64,000 bases of DNA from Candidatus Methylomirabilota bacterium. GTDB lineage: Bacteria > Methylomirabilota > Methylomirabilia > Rokubacteriales > CSP1-6. The notes beneath the pieces were generated by a model. It searched no databases. It worked only from the letters and a program-made list of their open reading frames with translations, and had not been told where the DNA came from. Positions 27,203 through 41,612 of the stretch are shown piece after piece; the stretch's first letter is position 1; every line of letters begins with the position of its first letter. The DNA lies in contig JBKPAK010000096.1 in NCBI GenBank assembly GCA_046726415.1, positions 27,523-91,522 on the forward strand. The letters are read 5' to 3'. The translations under genes were made by a program, and so were the position numbers.

Positions 27203-28648
27203 ATGACTGATCTTGCCCGCCAGCGTCCTGAGAGCTTCTTCTCGGATCGTTTCAACGTCACGGCCGCGCTCATGGACCGACTGCTCGGTTCGTCCCTCCG
27301 GGGCCGGGTCGATGACGCGGACATCTACCTCGAGTATCGTGTCAACGAAGAGCTGGTACTAGAAGAAGGCACAGTCAAAAAGGCCGCTCGGCATGTAGGT
27401 CAGGGAGCGGGCGTCCGGGCCCAGGCCGGTGTCCGGACGGGGTTTGCGCACACCGATGACATTTCGATCGGCAACCTCGAGGAGGCGGCGCGCCAAGCGA
27501 GGGCCATCGCCGACCACCCCTCCACCACTTCGGTGGTGGCCATCCCGGGCGGGCGCCCACACAATCTGTACGAGCTGAGCGAGTCACCGACTGTGACCGA
27601 TCTGGCCCGCAAGCTGACTTTGCTCCGCTCGGTCGATGCCGCGGCGCGGGCCGCCGATCCTCGCGTCAAGCAAGTCATCGCCACCCTGGCCAGCGAGGAG
27701 CTGGTGGTCCTCATGGCCACCGCGGCGGGTTGGACCGTGGGTGATGTTCGTCCGCTCACCCGCCTGAACGTAACGGTCATCGCCGAGGAGAACGGCAAGC
27801 GCGAGATCGGAACCTACGGGGGAGGTGGGCGCGTGGCCTTCGACTTCTTCCTGGATGAAGAGCGCTGGCACCGCTTTGCCCTCGAGGCCGCCCGGCAGGC
27901 GGTCCTGAAACTGGCTGCGATCGACGCCCCGGCGGGCACCATGACCGTCGTCCTCGGGCCGGGCTGGCCGGGCATCCTGCTCCACGAAGCGGTGGGACAC
28001 GGACTTGAGGGGGACTTCAATCGCAAGGGCACGTCCGCCTTCGCCGGCCGACTCGGCCAGAAAGTCGCCTCCGAGCTGGTGACCGTCGTCGACGATGGGA
28101 CGATTGCCAACCGCCGGGGCTCGCTCAACGTCGACGACGAGGGAACGCCCACCGGGCGCACCGTGCTCATCGACAGAGGGGTGCTCACCGGCTACATGCA
28201 GGACCGGCTCAACGCGCGCCTCATGGGCATGGCGCCCACCGGCAACGGACGGCGCGAGTCCTTCGCGCATCCCCCGATGCCGCGGATGACCAACACGTTC
28301 ATGCTGGCCGGCGACGACGATCCGACGGACATCATCCGCTCCGTCGGACAGGGGCTATACGCCGTGGCCTTTGGCGGGGGCCAGGTGGACATCACCAGCG
28401 GCAGGTTCGTCTTCTCGGCGAGCGAGGCCTACTTGATCGAAGGCGGACGCGTGACGGCTCCTGTCAAGGGAGCCACCCTGATTGGCAACGGTCCGGAGGC
28501 GCTCACCAGGGTGACGCGGGTCGGGCGCGATCTCAGGCTCGATGAGGGAGTGGGTACGTGCGGTAAGGAGGGGCAGTCGGTGCCCGTTGGGGTGGGCTTG
28601 CCTACCATTCGCGTCGACGGCATGACCGTCGGCGGGACTTCGGTCTGA
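27203..28648 (+). CDS. tldD: Metalloprotease TldD
   Basis: GWPGILLHEAVGHGLEGDFNRK, PRMTNT and TCGKEGQ. Confidence 0.95.
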   Translation: MTDLARQRPESFFSDRFNVTAALMDRLLGSSLRGRVDDADIYLEYRVNEELVLEEGTVKKAARHVGQGAGVRAQAGVRTGFAHTDDISIGNLEEAARQARAIADHPSTTSVVAIPGGRPHNLYELSESPTVTDLARKLTLLRSVDAAARAADPRVKQVIATLASEELVVLMATAAGWTVGDVRPLTRLNVTVIAEENGKREIGTYGGGGRVAFDFFLDEERWHRFALEAARQAVLKLAAIDAPAGTMTVVLGPGWPGILLHEAVGHGLEGDFNRKGTSAFAGRLGQKVASELVTVVDDGTIANRRGSLNVDDEGTPTGRTVLIDRGVLTGYMQDRLNARLMGMAPTGNGRRESFAHPPMPRMTNTFMLAGDDDPTDIIRSVGQGLYAVAFGGGQVDITSGRFVFSASEAYLIEGGRVTAPVKGATLIGNGPEALTRVTRVGRDLRLDEGVGTCGKEGQSVPVGVGLPTIRVDGMTVGGTSV

Positions 28649-28650
28649 GG

Positions 28651-29988
28651 ATGCGCGAGGATCTGCTCGCCGAGGTCCTCCGTCGAGCGCGTGCGCGAGG
28701 GGCCACCGCCGCCGATGGGTACTTGATCGAGGAGCGGCACTTCAGCGCGTCGGTGCGTCTGGGCGAAGTCGAGACGGTGACTCACGCGCGAGATCAGCGC
28801 CTGTCCCTGCGGGTCTTCGTGGGGCTCGCCTCGGCCGCCTCATCGACGTCCGATCTGTCGCCCCAGTCGCTCGAACGCGTGGTGGACGAGGCCACGGCGC
28901 TGGCCAAGATCACCGCCGAGGACCCCCACGCGGGTCTGCCCGATCCAGCCGAACTGATCGAGCACGTGCCGGATCTCGACTTGGAGGATGTGGCCGGGGA
29001 CTCCACGAGCCCAGAGGACAAGATCGCCATCGCCCGGGAGGCCGAGGCGGCCGCTCTCGCAAGCGATCCACGCATCACGAACTCGGAGGGGGCCGAGTAT
29101 GGCGACCGCCGCGCGCGCTTCGCCTACGCCACCTCGCACGGATTCGCCCGCGCGTACGCCACCTCCAGCTTCACCATCAGTGTGGCGCCGGTGGCGGCGG
29201 CCAACGGCGAGATGCAGCGCGACTACTGGTGGTCCACCGCGCGCAAGCGCGCCTGCCTCGAAGATCCGGCTTCGGTCGGGCGCACCGCGGCCGCGCGCGC
29301 CGTGCGGCGTCTCGGGTCGCGGAAGATCAGCACCACCGAAGTCCCCGTCATCTTCGACCCCGAGAATGCCGCCAGCCTGATCCGAGCACTGGCCGGCGCG
29401 GCCAGTGGACCGAGCCTCTATCGACGCGCCTCCTTTCTCCTCGATCGGCTGGGGACCACGATCGCGGCACCGCGAGTCACCGTCGTCGACGACGGCCTCA
29501 TCCCTGGCGCCCTCGGTTCGCGGCCATTCGACGGCGAAGGACTGGCCACCCGCCGAACGGTGCTGGTGCGGGAGGGAGTGCTGGAGTCCTACCTGCTCGA
29601 CAGTTACAGCGCGCGCAAGCTCGGGCTGACGTCGACGCACCACGCCGTCCGCGACGGCAGCGGCGTCACCGTGGCCACGACGAACCTCATGCTGCTGGCG
29701 GGACCGTCCACGCCGGCCGAGTTGATCGCCTCGGTGAAGCGCGGCCTGTACGTGACGGAGCTGATCGGCTTCGGCGTCAATGCCGTGACGGGCGACTACT
29801 CGCGCGGCGCGGTCGGTCTCTGGATCGAGAACGGCGAGTTGACCCATCCGGTCGAGGAAGTAACCGTGGCCGGCAACCTGCTGGAGATGTTCACGCGGAT
29901 CGAAGGCATTGGCAACGACCTGACCCTGCGTGACCGCACCGCCGCGCCGACGGTCCTCATCGGGCGCATGGTGGTGGCCGGGAACTGA
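28651..29988 (+). CDS. pmbA: TldE/PmbA protein
   Basis: Follows tldD; motifs ITNSEGA, MQRDYW, FDGEG and TGDYSRG; no HExxH. Confidence 0.92.
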   Translation: MREDLLAEVLRRARARGATAADGYLIEERHFSASVRLGEVETVTHARDQRLSLRVFVGLASAASSTSDLSPQSLERVVDEATALAKITAEDPHAGLPDPAELIEHVPDLDLEDVAGDSTSPEDKIAIAREAEAAALASDPRITNSEGAEYGDRRARFAYATSHGFARAYATSSFTISVAPVAAANGEMQRDYWWSTARKRACLEDPASVGRTAAARAVRRLGSRKISTTEVPVIFDPENAASLIRALAGAASGPSLYRRASFLLDRLGTTIAAPRVTVVDDGLIPGALGSRPFDGEGLATRRTVLVREGVLESYLLDSYSARKLGLTSTHHAVRDGSGVTVATTNLMLLAGPSTPAELIASVKRGLYVTELIGFGVNAVTGDYSRGAVGLWIENGELTHPVEEVTVAGNLLEMFTRIEGIGNDLTLRDRTAAPTVLIGRMVVAGN

Positions 29989-36941: not shown

Positions 36942-37503
36942 TCAGCGATCGAGGAATTTCTTCACGCTGAGGGCGATGCCTGAGCGGATCGAGGCCGTGT
37001 TTCGCATGGAGACCGCGGGGATCGCCTGACTCGCCGAAGCCGGTGATCGCCAAACGCTTGAGGGCAGCCGGGTTCGCCGAGCACCTCGGCCACCGCGCGG
37101 CCCGGATCTCCTGAGATCGAATGGTCCTCCACCGTCACCACACGCCCGGTCCGGCCCGCGCAGCGAAGCAGCATCTCTTCGTCGAGCGGTGGCGCACGCC
37201 GTCGAGCCCGTTGGCCCGCTCTCGCTTCGTCTCCAACTCGTCGGCGGGCTGGATGATCGAAATGTTCGGCAAGGCCCGCAAGCCGGCCATGCCTCTAAGC
37301 CCATCTGGCTGTACCCATCCTCGCCGATGGCGATGCCCGCGTGCGACCCGACGATCCGCTCGTCTCCCACCCCCAGCTCGAGGAGAGCTTCTCCCAATGC
37401 GCTCGCCTGGCGGCGTCCCGCCTCAAATGGGCGTCCCAGTCGGCCTCCGCCACGCCGAGGATCTCGCGGGCGTTCTCCATGAACGACACCCCTTTGCCCT
37501 TGA
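36942..37503 (-). pseudogene. Relic of split transketolase genes (end of N-subunit plus fragments of C-subunit)
   Basis: KGKGVSFMEN, GEALLELG, SHAGIAIGEDGYSQMGLE, VVTVEDHS and FGESG blocks occur in different frames with long gaps missing. Confidence 0.8.
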
Positions 37504-38392
37504 GGCGGCCGAGCCGTCCGAGGAAGGGGGTATTCGATGCGTAGAAGGCTCCCGATCGGCAGGCCGGGGCCAAGAGAGTGTTGACCAGGTCGGCCACCGG
37601 CTGTGGCCCCAGGATCACGGTATAGTCGCCGGTCGGCACCCGCTCGCCCTCAATGCCGCCGATGGCGCTCAAGGCCGCTTCGACGCCCGCCTCGTCCGTG
37701 AAGTGATCGAGTCGCGTTCCCACGGAGCACGCCGAGCCCTTGGCGTCGCGCGCTTCGACCATGGCGGTGGTGAAGGCAGACATGAGAGTCGACTCGTCGG
37801 TCTGGACGGCGGGCAGACCAGTCGAGATGACAGCCATGCGCTCCTGGAGGATTCGGACATCGCCCCCGAGAATGAGACCCAGGCGAACCAGCCCCTCCTC
37901 GCTGCCGGCCAACTCCGCCAGTCGGGCCGATGTCAGGAATGTCCTCAGCGCCCCGCGAACGATCGTCCACCCCGCATCGACCAGCCGCTCGTCAGAGAGG
38001 CTCATGAGGGCGCGGTCGTGGTATGCGCTGAGGGTTCGAGTCTCGCCAGTCGGTCGGGGGAGCGAGACGAACTGGGGATCGGCGACAGCCGCCATGCGCG
38101 CCCGGGCGAGCGCTCGGCGGGCCGCCTCCACTCCGAGGTCGCCGGCCGCGCTCCCGAACCCGAGGCGCGGCCCGTCGCCATGATCGAACAGTGCTTGAAG
38201 TCCCAGTCCATGGCCCACTGTGGACTTCGGTTCCTCCACACCGTTGCAGGGGACGTGCGAGGTGTAACAGAGACGGCTCAACAAGTGGCCGTTGGCGGAG
38301 GCGAATACTTCTACCTCGCGCACATCCGGAGCGGCCCGCGCGAGATCGAATGCCGTCTGCGCGGCCTGCGCCAACGCACTCACCGAGACCAT
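37504..38392 (-). pseudogene. TldE/PmbA-like gene, 3'-truncated and fused in frame to the transketolase relic
   Basis: EVEVFAS, LGFGS, PTGDYTVILGPQPVADL and TPFLGRLG, then an abrupt switch to KGKGVSFMEN. Confidence 0.72.
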
Positions 38393-38399
38393 ATCGGCG

Positions 38400-38822
38400 T
38401 CAGCGTGCCCCGTCGGCCTTGGCGGAGGTGCCCACGAGCGGATAGCCCTTGGCCTGCCAGCCGGGAAGCCCCTCGTCGAGGACGCGCTGGTTGCGCCAAC
38501 CCATCTCGTAGAGCACGTTGCTGGCTCCCCGAGCCAGTGCATGCGGGCAGGTTCAATAGAGGATGACGAGCCCGATACGCGGGATCTCCTTGGCCCGCTG
38601 TCGGATGTTCCGCAGGGGAATCGACCGCGCCCCGGCAATGTGCAGGGCGTCGTACTCCGGCGGCGTGCGGACGTCGATGATGGCGACGGATTGCTTGCTA
38701 TCGATGGCCTTCTTCAGCTCGTCGACCGAGACGTAGCTCACGGGAAGATCGGGCGGGGCCGCTGGCGAGGCACCCACGAGCAGAACTCCGGCGACCGCCA
38801 CGGCGATCAGGGACAGGCGCAT
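38400..38822 (-). CDS. Exported rhodanese-domain protein with in-frame UGA at the catalytic position (candidate selenoprotein, UxC motif), 140 aa
   Basis: Signal peptide, IIDVR, HIAGA, then VILY-TGA(38555-38553)-TCPHALARGASNVLYEMGWRNQRVLDEGLPGWQAKGYP... to the stop at 38402-38400. Confidence 0.8.
38513..38540 (-). promoter_or_regulatory. Candidate bacterial SECIS hairpin GCA-CUGGCU-CGGGG-AGCCAG-CAACG-UGC
   Basis: Perfect 6-bp stem starting 15 nt after the UGA; G-rich apical loop about 22 nt after the UGA. Confidence 0.65.
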
Positions 38823-38827
38823 GCCGG

Positions 38828-39909
38828 TCAGCTGCCGATCACGCGAGCGTGGCTGCGCAGGGTAGGTCCGCCATTGCCGAGCTTGCGAGACTGCAAGGGT
38901 TGACCCGTCCCGCAATTGGGAATCGGAAAGAGGCGGAAGTCAGCGCCCACCGCGTCGACGTTCAGCAAAAAGGTGCGGCTGTCCGCAGTCATCCCGCCAT
39001 CGCGGAAGAGCTGGCCGAGCTCGCCATTCCGGATCTCGTACACGCCTCGCGTGGAAATCCGGAAGTTCTCGCGGCTCTCGGCAATCGATGGGATGCGATG
39101 ACCCGCAAGGTAGTACCCTCGCTCGACCTCCTTGAGGATCTCAGGAGCTGGCCGCTCGCCCCCGGCGAAGACCGTGGTGGACATACGGACCAGTGGCACC
39201 AGCGCCGCGTCGACCGCCTGGCAATGGCCTTTCGGCTCGCCGCCTGGCTCACGCCGCCGGACACGGCCACCACCGCGGCGAACCCCTGGGTGAGGGCAAA
39301 CGCCTGGTCGAGCACCGCGCTTTCCGTGGAAACGAAAAGTTCCCGCGAGAGCTGTGTCGACGTGGAGAGGTAGCTGTGCGCGATACGCGTGTCCAGCGTC
39401 GCGACGTCGCGGGCGACCTCCAGGGTGTTGCGGGTCATGCGGTCCAGAGTCACGCTGCGGGGATCGAGCTCGTAGACGGCGGGCACCGTGTCGCGCCGAA
39501 CGTCCACCGAGTGCAGGCGCGTATCGGCGAGGGCGAAGCCAAGCGCGCCGAACTTCTCCCGCGTCGTGGCCTTCATCTCGCCGTTGATCGCGGCGCGTCG
39601 ATGGGCCTGGGCGATGGCGTCCCTGACCACGCGGGCCACCTTCTCGGTGTCGGCGGCGCCCAGGCTCACTCCGACATGGCCCGGGGCAATCGCACGATCG
39701 CCGGCCAGCACGCGAACGCCGAGGGCGAGGCGCGCCTCCACCCCCGAGGCGCGGCTGGCCCCGTTCACCGCGGAGGCCCATCGCCCTTCCGTAATCTCGA
39801 CGCGCACGTCGGCGTGGGCGAGGCGGGGAAGTCGACGCGCATCTGCGACGAGGTCGGGAAGGACGATGGCGAGCGCGTCGATCAGCTCAACGCTGACGCG
39901 GTCGGTCAT
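38828..39909 (-). pseudogene. TldD-like gene with central deletion and frameshift
   Basis: N-terminal part (ADVRVE, LGVRVLAG) joins near 39240, in another frame, to the C-terminal part (PLVRMSTT, NCGTGQP, GNGGP); no HExxGH. Confidence 0.78.
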
Positions 39910-41114
39910 GTCGCCGGGCCAGAGAACGGTTCCACCAGGATCAGTTCCCCGGGCATCACGTCGCCCCGTTCTTCCTCGAGCACGATCAGACAGTTGCCGG
40001 CGACCATCGAGGAGAGGATGCCGGATCCCTGGGGACCCGTGGTGCGAACCTGCCAGCCATCACCGCTCCACGTCAGCACGCCGCGCTTGAACTCCCGGCG
40101 TCCCCTCTTTTTGCGCATCTCCTCAGCGGCCCGCGCCGGGTAGAGGTCGGGGAAGAGGCGACTCCGCCCGAGCAGTTTGTAAAGGGACGGGCGCACGAAC
40201 AGCAGGAAAGTCAGCATTGAGGCGACGGGGTTGCCCGGGAGGCCGAAGAAGTTGGCCTGTCCGAGGCGCCCCACGGCAAGGGGGCGTCCGGGCTGCATGG
40301 CCACCTGCCAGAAGTCAATGCCGCCGATCTCGGCGAGCACGTCCTTGACGAGGTCGTGCGCGCCGACCGAAACGCCGCCCGAGGTAATCACGAGGTCGGC
40401 CATGTCCGCCGCCTCCAGGAGACGGGCCCGCAGCTCCTCGCGGCGATCGGGCACGATGCCGAGATCGGTGACAGCGCCCCCGCACTGCTCGACGGAGGCG
40501 CGGAGCGTGAAGCGGTTGGCGTCGTAGATCTGTCCCGGCTTTCGCGGGGTGCCGGGCTCGGCCACCTCGTCGCCCGTCGACAGGAGCGCGACGCGCGGTC
40601 GCGTGTGGACGGCCACCTGGCAGAGTCCCAGCGAGGCGATCAGTCCGAGTTCCTGAGGGCGGAGGACGGAACCGGCGTCGATGATGGCGTCCCCGCTCGA
40701 CACGTCCTCGCCTCGACGTCGCACGTTGACTCCTCGCGCGAGCGGACCGATGCGCACGTGGTCGCCGACGCGCTCCACGACTTCCTGAGCATAGACGGTA
40801 CCGGCGCCGGCCGGCACTGGCGCCCCCGTCATGATGCGAACGGCGCAGCCGGGCGCCAGCGCTCCGTCGAAGACGGCGCCGGCGGGTAGATCAGCGACGA
40901 CGGCGAGATCGCGCGTGCCCCCTCGTGGAATATCGTCGTCGCATACTGCGTAACCATCGACCGCGGAGTTGTCGGCCGGAGGGACATCGAACGGGGCGCG
41001 CACCCGCTGGGCCAGCACGCGTCCGAGGGCGGCGCGAAGGGGAATGATCTCGTTCGGCGTGACGGTGGCAATGGACGCAAGAATCTGATTTTGAGCGTCC
41101 GTCACGGAAATCAT
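39906..41114 (-). CDS. moeA: Molybdopterin molybdotransferase
   Basis: NSAVDGYA, RIMTGAP, STGDE, SGGVSVG, LPGNP and QGSGILSS. Confidence 0.95.
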   Translation of the reverse strand: MISVTDAQNQILASIATVTPNEIIPLRAALGRVLAQRVRAPFDVPPADNSAVDGYAVCDDDIPRGGTRDLAVVADLPAGAVFDGALAPGCAVRIMTGAPVPAGAGTVYAQEVVERVGDHVRIGPLARGVNVRRRGEDVSSGDAIIDAGSVLRPQELGLIASLGLCQVAVHTRPRVALLSTGDEVAEPGTPRKPGQIYDANRFTLRASVEQCGGAVTDLGIVPDRREELRARLLEAADMADLVITSGGVSVGAHDLVKDVLAEIGGIDFWQVAMQPGRPLAVGRLGQANFFGLPGNPVASMLTFLLFVRPSLYKLLGRSRLFPDLYPARAAEEMRKKRGRREFKRGVLTWSGDGWQVRTTGPQGSGILSSMVAGNCLIVLEEERGDVMPGELILVEPFSGPAT

Positions 41115-41132
41115 GGCCGTATTATACCCGCC
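41115..41132. promoter_or_regulatory. Bidirectional leaderless promoter with overlapping -10 elements (TATAAT on minus, TATTAT on plus)
   Basis: 18-bp gap between divergent ATGs; the -10 elements lie 6 and 7 nt from the respective ATG; no Shine-Dalgarno. Confidence 0.7.
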
Positions 41133-41612
41133 ATGGATGAGGCGCGACCGGCCGGCTTCTGGATCCGCGCGGTGGCCGCGCTCGCGGATTTTGCGATCTT
41201 CTTCCTCGTCCAGGTTTCGTTCGGCTCGGTGGCGGCCACCACCGTGGGACCCAACGTCGAGGACCTCGACGCGTTCCTTCCGTTGGTGTGGACCTTCACC
41301 CTGGTATTTGCGGGTACGTACACCACCGTGCTGCATGCGCGCGGGAGCGGTCAGACCATCGGCAAGCTGTTGGTCGGGGTGCGCGTGACGAGCGTCGACG
41401 GCGGCCTGCTTCCCGTCGGCGCGGCGCTCCTGAGATTCGTCGGCTACTTCGCCTCGCTGGCGAGCTTCGCCGTGGGGTTTGCCATGGCGGGATTGCGGCG
41501 TGACAAGCGGGCACTTCACGATCTCCTCGCGGGTAGTCGTGTCGAATACGTGGCCCGCGTTCTAGGCCCGGCGCCCAGCCCCGAGGCGGCCCCGCCTCGG
41601 ACCACCGAATGA
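41133..41612 (+). CDS. RDD family membrane protein
   Basis: AGFWIRAVAALAD, GQTIGK and KRALHDLLAGS. Confidence 0.88.
   Translation: MDEARPAGFWIRAVAALADFAIFFLVQVSFGSVAATTVGPNVEDLDAFLPLVWTFTLVFAGTYTTVLHARGSGQTIGKLLVGVRVTSVDGGLLPVGAALLRFVGYFASLASFAVGFAMAGLRRDKRALHDLLAGSRVEYVARVLGPAPSPEAAPPRTTE

Follow-up and report, generated by a model that had tools for sequence, protein, structure and literature searches.

The stretch of DNA considered here, 64,000 nucleotides (nt) from a Candidatus Methylomirabilota bacterium and called the window in what follows, carries on its minus strand a short gene for a rhodanese in which the codon at the catalytic position is TGA. The open reading frame (ORF) finder closes this minus-strand frame at the triplet 38553-38555, right after ..GLVILY. 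When the TGA is read as selenocysteine (Sec, U), translation continues with U-T-C-P-H-A-L-A-R-G-A-S.. through 50 further codons (91-140), including VLDEGLPGWQAKGYP, and the second TGA is followed after only 7 bp (38393-38399) by the next gene, whose ATG is at 38392. An earlier note on this DNA had claimed as much: that the TGA takes the place of the rhodanese catalytic Cys, that read-through yields U-T-C-P-H and 50 codons with the C-terminal signature of the family, that the extended gene stops 7 bp ahead of its neighbor, and that standard annotation would truncate it or take it for a pseudogene. The translation and the coordinates agree with this description, the alignments to solved rhodaneses given below confirm the position of the TGA, and the truncation is found in 52 of 54 database homologs, which end at about 89 residues. 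The features of the gene are the following.

38822..38400, minus strand: Sec-rhodanese gene, starting with the ATG at 38822, with 140 codons plus the terminal TGA (38400-38402)

38757..38822, minus strand: predicted signal peptide covering roughly codons 1-22, with M-R, a hydrophobic core and S-P-A before A-P-P, by sequence reading

38448..38729, minus strand: rhodanese homology domain, residues 32-125 (Pfam PF00581, E 6.2e-16)

38553-38555, minus strand: in-frame TGA, codon 90, the Sec codon at the catalytic position in Y-U-T-C-P-H, from the ORF and the read-through translation

38521..38537, minus strand: SECIS-like (selenocysteine insertion sequence-like) hairpin with a 7-bp stem, CUGGCUC/GAGCCAG, and a GGG loop, from the fold, pair counts and codon statistics

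The read-through product is a complete rhodanese. The Pfam profile Rhodanese (PF00581) scores 59.1 bits, against a cut-off of 22.2, with all of its positions covered (1-102 of 102), and, because the match runs over residues 32-125, the domain straddles the TGA. HMMER alignments to rhodaneses of solved structure place the TGA column on the catalytic Cys that follows the central beta-strand (..VYC-RTGGRS in 3tp9 and ..YC-GGGFRS in 6mxv). The AlphaFold2 (AF2) model, obtained with 21 family sequences, shows a mean predicted local distance difference test (pLDDT) value of 85.8, with 87-97 over residues 31-130, and contains a strand at residues 85-89, at the end of which U90 is found. The top Foldseek matches of this model were all rhodanese domains, with 3tp9 reaching a template modelling (TM) score of 0.71 (E 2.8e-9). 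In the alignment of the 21 sequences, the window gene keeps 27 of the 27 invariant columns and is therefore intact in this genome; sixteen invariant columns lie after codon 90, and one invariant residue is a second Cys (C92) located two residues past U90, within the sequence Y-U-x-C-P-H. The alignment of the family loci also shows that the orthologs share the M-R.. start and the length of the window gene.

The key observation regarding the nature of codon 90 came from its conservation. The read-through protein was searched against 61 related genomes and, among the best 42 rows (E up to 1e-24), 39 contained an in-frame TGA and three did not. Within the taxonomic family of the window organism, 20 loci were compared (among them L034, from an unpublished genome, G011), and in every one of them the TGA occupies the identical column, followed by two near-invariant stretches, C-P-H-A-L-[AS]-R-G-A-S and V-L-D-E-G-L-P-G-W. 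In a sister family, nine of 13 loci have TGA at this column, within the variant motif Y-U-A-C-P-H-H-L-A-S-L-A-Y, and the other four have Cys; two of these are TGC orthologs (L044 and L045) and two are remoter Cys paralogs. A pattern scan of genome contigs, restricted to one genome per species and covering genomes that overlap with those of the family and sister-family sets, yielded 80 loci, 78 with TGA and two with TGC at the same column. The TGA form is spread over many genera and two families. Among the 54 homologs retrieved from a large protein database, the only two that match past the Sec column are full-length Cys forms, P0003 (Y-C-T-C-P-H) and P0004 (Y-C-A-C-P-H).

The codons that follow the TGA were equally informative. 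Across 73 distinct sequences, the residues E117, G118 and L119 are fixed while their codons are not, since E117 is encoded by GAG in 37 cases and by GAA in 36, G118 by four codons and L119 by five. Judged by this codon pattern, the region past the TGA is under protein-level selection and behaves as coding sequence in the same frame. Thus, both patterns that the earlier note had put forward as checks, the pairing of Cys with TGA at one column across independent genomes and conservation downstream of the TGA, were found. A genome-wide change in the genetic code, which would make TGA a sense codon, was also considered and ruled out, given that 18 of the 20 family genes themselves terminate with TGA.

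A bacterial SECIS is a stem-loop that follows the UGA at a short distance and contains G in its apical loop. In the window gene, a 17-nt hairpin begins 15 nt past the UGA; its family form is CUGGC(C/U)C-G(G/U)G-G(G/A)GCCAG and, in the window copy, a weaker 5-bp lower stem stretches it to 38513-38544. The hairpin was taken from the alignment by eye and then tested by pair counts and codon statistics. In 14 sequences, the positions of the stem are paired in 92.9% of cells, compared to 20-58% when the partner is slid, and pair 27-33 (CG in 11 sequences, UA in two and UG in one) contributes one compensatory change; the window copy holds the compensated U-A pair, as does a same-genus relative. Codon usage provides stronger evidence for the hairpin than these pair counts. 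The codons of the stem are nearly frozen (Leu96 is CTG in 65 of 69, Gly99 GGG in 70 of 72, Ala100 GCC in 72 of 73 and Ser101 AGC in 73 of 73), with synonymous entropies of 0-0.38 bits versus 0.9-1.8 bits for the other invariant four- and sixfold degenerate codons of the gene, and the sole hairpin base that varies freely is the center of the loop (CGG in 52 and CGT in 19), the loop being GGG or GUG. At this place the sister family carries another hairpin (GGCCA-GUU/GUC-UGGCC), which its two Cys orthologs lack; these employ other synonymous codons, L044 for the peptide H-H-L-A-S-L-A-Y and L045 for the same peptide with one Ala-to-Ser change. Within the genome of the window, two further UGAs, one in selD and one in another rhodanese gene, also precede GC hairpins that start 13-15 nt downstream.

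The window itself contains no sel gene, as the earlier note had stated, and the complete machinery for Sec, whose presence in the genome that note had proposed to verify, was located elsewhere in the genome (G000; 7.6 Mb, 352 contigs, 98% complete). The tRNA-Sec scores 71 bits (gathering score 47) and is called SeC by ARAGORN, with anticodon tca; selA (592 bits) and selB (374 bits) lie beside it on one contig, the three within 4.3 kb, and selD scores 336 bits, so that all four are above their curated cut-offs. The selD gene (locus L019, 1501-2445, plus strand, corresponding to 11994-12938 of contig C223) has its own in-frame TGA (..S-C-A-G-U-A-S-K..), with an 8-bp hairpin beginning 13 nt downstream, and the selenophosphate synthetase is therefore itself a selenoprotein. 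Among the 61 relatives, selA was above the cut-off in 55. Of the six that remain, G025 and G028 contain selB at the edge of a contig, G013 has the tRNA-Sec, and G040 has no match to the rhodanese either; the other two, G009 and G011, are considered below.

With respect to the location of the product, the N-terminus consists of one Arg, about 15 hydrophobic residues and A/S-P-A before A-P-P, a region that the relatives keep as ..GAAPA before APP.. and that the fold model predicts with low confidence (pLDDT of 54 for residues 1-20). These traits suggest that the protein is probably exported through an N-terminal signal peptide of the general secretory (Sec-type) class, and that its domain works outside the cytoplasm. 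Twin-arginine (Tat) export was also considered, but only some orthologs start with M-R-R and the window copy starts with M-R-L, which makes the Sec-type route likelier.

All these observations could be integrated by assuming that this is a working selenoprotein gene, in which UGA codon 90 specifies Sec at the catalytic site of an exported rhodanese relying on U90/C92 chemistry, a joint reading to which we assign a probability of about 0.88. The recoding signature, the rhodanese fold and the position of the Sec codon are the firm parts of it, and that the TGA is read as Sec is almost certain. In the proposed mechanism, UGA codon 90 of the mRNA would be decoded as Sec, with the GC-rich coding-region hairpin 15 nt downstream recruiting SelB charged with Sec-tRNA(Sec), as in the standard bacterial SECIS mechanism, and with the products of selC, selA, selB and selD supplied from elsewhere in the genome. 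The resulting 140-residue precursor would comprise the Sec-type signal peptide and one rhodanese domain. U90 would then act as the nucleophile, either taking up sulfane sulfur or becoming oxidized, and the resolving residue would be C92, by way of a selenenyl-sulfide bond, so that the protein might serve in sulfur transfer or as a thiol-redox protein, presumably more reactive than its Cys relatives. The earlier note had proposed a periplasmic, Sec-dependent protein; the dependence on Sec is now well supported, and the periplasmic location, like the chemistry, is still inferred.

Several points weigh against this reading. Two relatives, G009 (98% complete by markers) and G011, hold the TGA form, and in their assemblies no selA was found, nor any selB or tRNA-Sec over the cut-off; in G000 the three are confined to 4.3 kb, so that a single gap in the assembly could be enough to account for their joint absence. 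Regarding the hairpin, the single-sequence fold of the 67 nt after the UGA was not significantly better than that of shuffled sequences (z -1.54, 16 of 200 as good), the RNAalifold consensus of the 14 sequences was unconvincing and did not include the hairpin, and the covariation is thin, with one of seven pairs altered on both sides and five of the 14 sequences mismatched at pair 25-35. The active-site loop also appears to depart from a textbook thiosulfate-binding loop, because its Arg is fixed only in the Sec forms, in which the hairpin includes the codon for it, and is replaced by Gln or Val in the Cys forms P0003 and P0004. One locus of the pattern scan, L118, has an additional in-frame TAG 16 codons past the Sec codon (..D-I-L-Y-stop); the copy is either broken or affected by an error in the sequence of its metagenome-assembled genome (MAG). 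Finally, both flanking genes, tightly joined to the rhodanese gene in the relatives, are damaged in the genome of the window, which leaves the expression of this copy uncertain.

Rhodanese-related selenoproteins, already mentioned in the earlier note, are a catalogued kind. Sec within a rhodanese domain has been described among computationally predicted selenoproteins (PMC13188914, PMC1088965), and the accessible part of a 2026 review (PMC13188914) lists five rhodanese selenoprotein forms, namely UxxS, UxxG, CxU, UxxG and UxxxxU, the third of which (rhodanese-like form 3, CxU) corresponds there to the NCBIfam model NF041203. A UxU form is mentioned for an Olavius symbiont in the excerpted text of PMC1976440. 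The U-x-C arrangement is not among the five forms in that part of the review, nor was it found in the literature searched, although Deng et al. 2026, who according to the same excerpt predict 63 selenoproteins in a Methylomirabilota MAG, or Haft and Tolstoy 2025 may already list the family. A literature search on Rokubacteria and selenocysteine returned nothing relevant, the deep-Sep paper (PMC12013277) does not mention rhodanese, and the ExtH rhodanese of Geobacter is not called a selenoprotein in the available sections of PMC5877670.

The curated family that scores best against the protein is NF041203 (rhodanese_LYCAU), with which it shares a small single domain of the Y-C-x-C-P type and the replacement of one Cys by Sec. 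However, the Sec occupies the other Cys, as NF041203 has C-x-U (C-A-U) and the window protein U-x-C (U-T-C). The score is 46.3 bits, and 47-50 bits for the Cys forms related to the window protein, against a cut-off of 115; therefore, they constitute a separate family. Another comparison is offered by a candidate second Sec-rhodanese of G000. Over 107 residues the two proteins share 34% identity, L-Y-C-T-C-P matching at every column, and the second gene likewise contains a TGA in frame, with a hairpin at equal spacing behind it. In contrast to the window gene, it has Sec at the +2 position (Y-C-T-U-P) and its rhodanese is fused behind a multi-pass membrane part that looks DedA-like by reading. 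This gene is found at L138 1447-1866 (minus strand), corresponding to about 24410-24736 of contig C308, and scores 89.4 bits to NF041203, below the same cut-off. Many relatives have a similar second rhodanese match, with one TGA in an open frame of 330-390 residues, and in several genomes of the sister family a second rhodanese match with a TGA lies 5-9 kb away from the first.

Sec also lies inside a rhodanese domain in forms 1, 2 and 4 (UxxS and UxxG) and in the Olavius symbiont's UxU form, and their described motifs set these apart from the U-x-C-P-H protein. Among non-Sec proteins, a close counterpart is PspE of E. coli (PDB 2jtq, E 1.1e-5), equally a small exported single rhodanese domain, export being a prediction in the case of the window protein. 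PspE has one Cys and no Sec, and the models NF007627 and TIGR02981 score 32.2 and 27.2 bits here, below their cut-offs of 102 and 126.3. PspE is periplasmic and can drive disulfide formation through its oxidized Cys, as reported in the accessible part of PMC4138195, citing Chng 2012.

In the window, the rhodanese gene is preceded and followed on the same strand by three further genes.

39906..41519, minus strand: moeA-like gene heading the same-strand run, from the ORF; the syntenic gene of relative G002 matches MoeA_N, MoCF_biosynth and MoeA_C

38828..39909, minus strand: tldD-like gene, upstream and damaged, from tblastn of the intact G002 protein

37472..38392, minus strand: pmbA-like gene, downstream and damaged, from tblastn of the intact G002 protein

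The order on the strand is thus moeA, tldD-like, Sec-rhodanese and pmbA-like. Out of 73 loci, 70 have the tldD-like gene immediately before the rhodanese gene and 65 have the pmbA-like gene immediately after it, with less than 150 nt of DNA left in five of the eight misses; the intact 519-residue pmbA-like protein of G002 matches PF19289. By reading of their N-termini, the tldD-like and pmbA-like proteins have no signal peptide and are apparently cytoplasmic. The carriers of the gene are MAGs titled Candidatus Rokubacteria, Rokuibacteriota or Methylomirabilota. A second type, with the motif Y-U-A/S-C-P-H-H-L-A-S-L-A-Y (L132, L133 and L136, as well as L044-L054), includes five loci in MAGs titled Binatia, Acidiferrales, Proteobacteria and Entotheonellaceae. 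In three of these five (MAGs titled Binatia or Acidiferrales), SCO1/SenC and VKOR genes precede the second-type gene on the same strand and, in the sister Rokubacteria family, a gene for a Fur-family regulator is found about 70 nt downstream of it. The neighborhood therefore differs between clades, tldD/pmbA-like in one and Fur or SCO1/VKOR in others.

These contexts bear on the chemistry of the protein. A possibility that we hold tentatively, and consider less probable than not, is that the U-x-C pair works as a thiol-disulfide, here selenenyl-sulfide, oxidoreductase of the cell envelope and not as a carrier of sulfane sulfur; it could be a DsbA-like partner of VKOR, take part in the maturation of copper proteins, or reduce arsenate or selenite. 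The SCO1/SenC and VKOR genes and the Fur-family regulator would fit such roles, the disulfide formation by PspE constitutes a precedent, and the Cys forms do without a conserved anion-binding Arg in the loop. On the other hand, the context varies by clade and in the lineage of the window consists of apparently cytoplasmic partners, and the C-x-C spacing is unusual for oxidoreductases. A broader and more speculative version, rather doubtful in our view, takes the Y-C-x-C-P rhodaneses as a redox module of two residues, either one open to replacement by Sec, as both U-x-C and C-x-U versions are encoded in G000, and the exported U-x-C form as an envelope selenenyl-sulfide oxidoreductase of the abundant Rokubacteria of soil, equivalent to DsbA or PspE but dependent on selenium. 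The exported form would be wired to VKOR and SCO1 in some lineages and, in the lineage of the window, to a TldD/PmbA protease pair, perhaps for maturing or detoxifying a product containing sulfur or selenium.

A different question is whether the copy in the window is still in use. The family could consist of real selenoproteins and this copy be a remnant of a broken operon, perhaps no longer transcribed or translationally coupled, which we regard as unlikely. The damage to the neighbors, anticipated in the earlier note as a decay of the surrounding genes, was verified for this genome by tblastn with the intact G002 proteins. The tldD-like gene has lost residues ~200-361 of its intact relative (about 160 codons), with a frame change at ~39238-39244, and the pmbA-like gene is recognizable only over residues 1-308 of ~519, its last ~200 codons being lost. 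Both are intact in the loci of 18 of 19 relatives, where they and the rhodanese gene abut within a few bases. Contigs from soil metagenome runs also hold this stretch, and they present several structural variants, with a branch point at 39244 as well as alternative joints from 37079 to 38014 and from 37175 to 37401; a contig of run X2 bridges the tldD deletion junction. However, the rhodanese gene is itself intact, as is its hairpin with the compensated pair. Contigs of two runs cover it and show no difference at 38553-38555, the changes within the gene being confined to the signal-peptide region and codon 31; those of runs X1 and X3 do not extend over it. Furthermore, one contig of run X4, whose rhodanese gene is near-identical, departs from the window at 39244, and the DNA that it enters seems, by reading of the first 30 letters, to resemble the missing part of tldD. 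The tldD deletion may therefore be strain-specific or the result of an assembly collapse.

It could also be argued that the TGA simply terminates translation, leaving an exported fragment of 89 residues, and that the conservation downstream belongs to a separate peptide or to an RNA element. Gene callers do stop there, as the truncated database homologs illustrate, and the two TGA-form relatives with no Sec machinery in their assemblies would agree with it. Nevertheless, the fragment would be devoid of the catalytic loop and of the last helix-strand-helix of the fold, the 50 codons downstream have a coding pattern in the same frame and, by reading, lack a conserved start codon or ribosome-binding site that could serve them separately, and the Cys forms are continuous proteins. 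We consider this explanation very improbable. As for a one-off TGC-to-TGA nonsense mutation that made a pseudogene in a decaying region, a caveat of the earlier note to which the damaged neighbors lend some color, the TGA/Cys pairing at one column excludes a private mutation for the family, and the recurrence of the TGA in 78 of 80 loci from many genera and two families, with a matched hairpin in the TGA forms only, renders the idea hardly credible for this copy.

Taken as a working selenoprotein gene, the locus reveals a conserved, probably exported selenoprotein of a phylum widespread in soil and groundwater that is invisible to standard annotation and to the curated models. Its U-x-C motif adds a sixth pattern to the catalogued rhodanese selenoproteins, and the coexistence of U-x-C and C-x-U proteins in one genome offers a natural setting in which to ask which Cys of the pair carries out the chemistry. 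It also illustrates cleanly how the constraint on a SECIS inside a coding region shows in frozen synonymous sites, while the understanding of Sec decoding itself is unchanged.

Two minor observations concern the surroundings of the gene. The region between what remains of the pmbA-like gene and a PAS/HisKA gene (36942-37400, minus strand) contains short ORFs in several frames that look by eye like pieces of a transketolase C-terminus (..IIQPADELET.. and ..VVTVEDHSI..). About 9 kb away, at 27839-29913 on the plus strand, there is a second and remoter pair of the TldD/PmbA family, with 26-32% identity to the G002 proteins.

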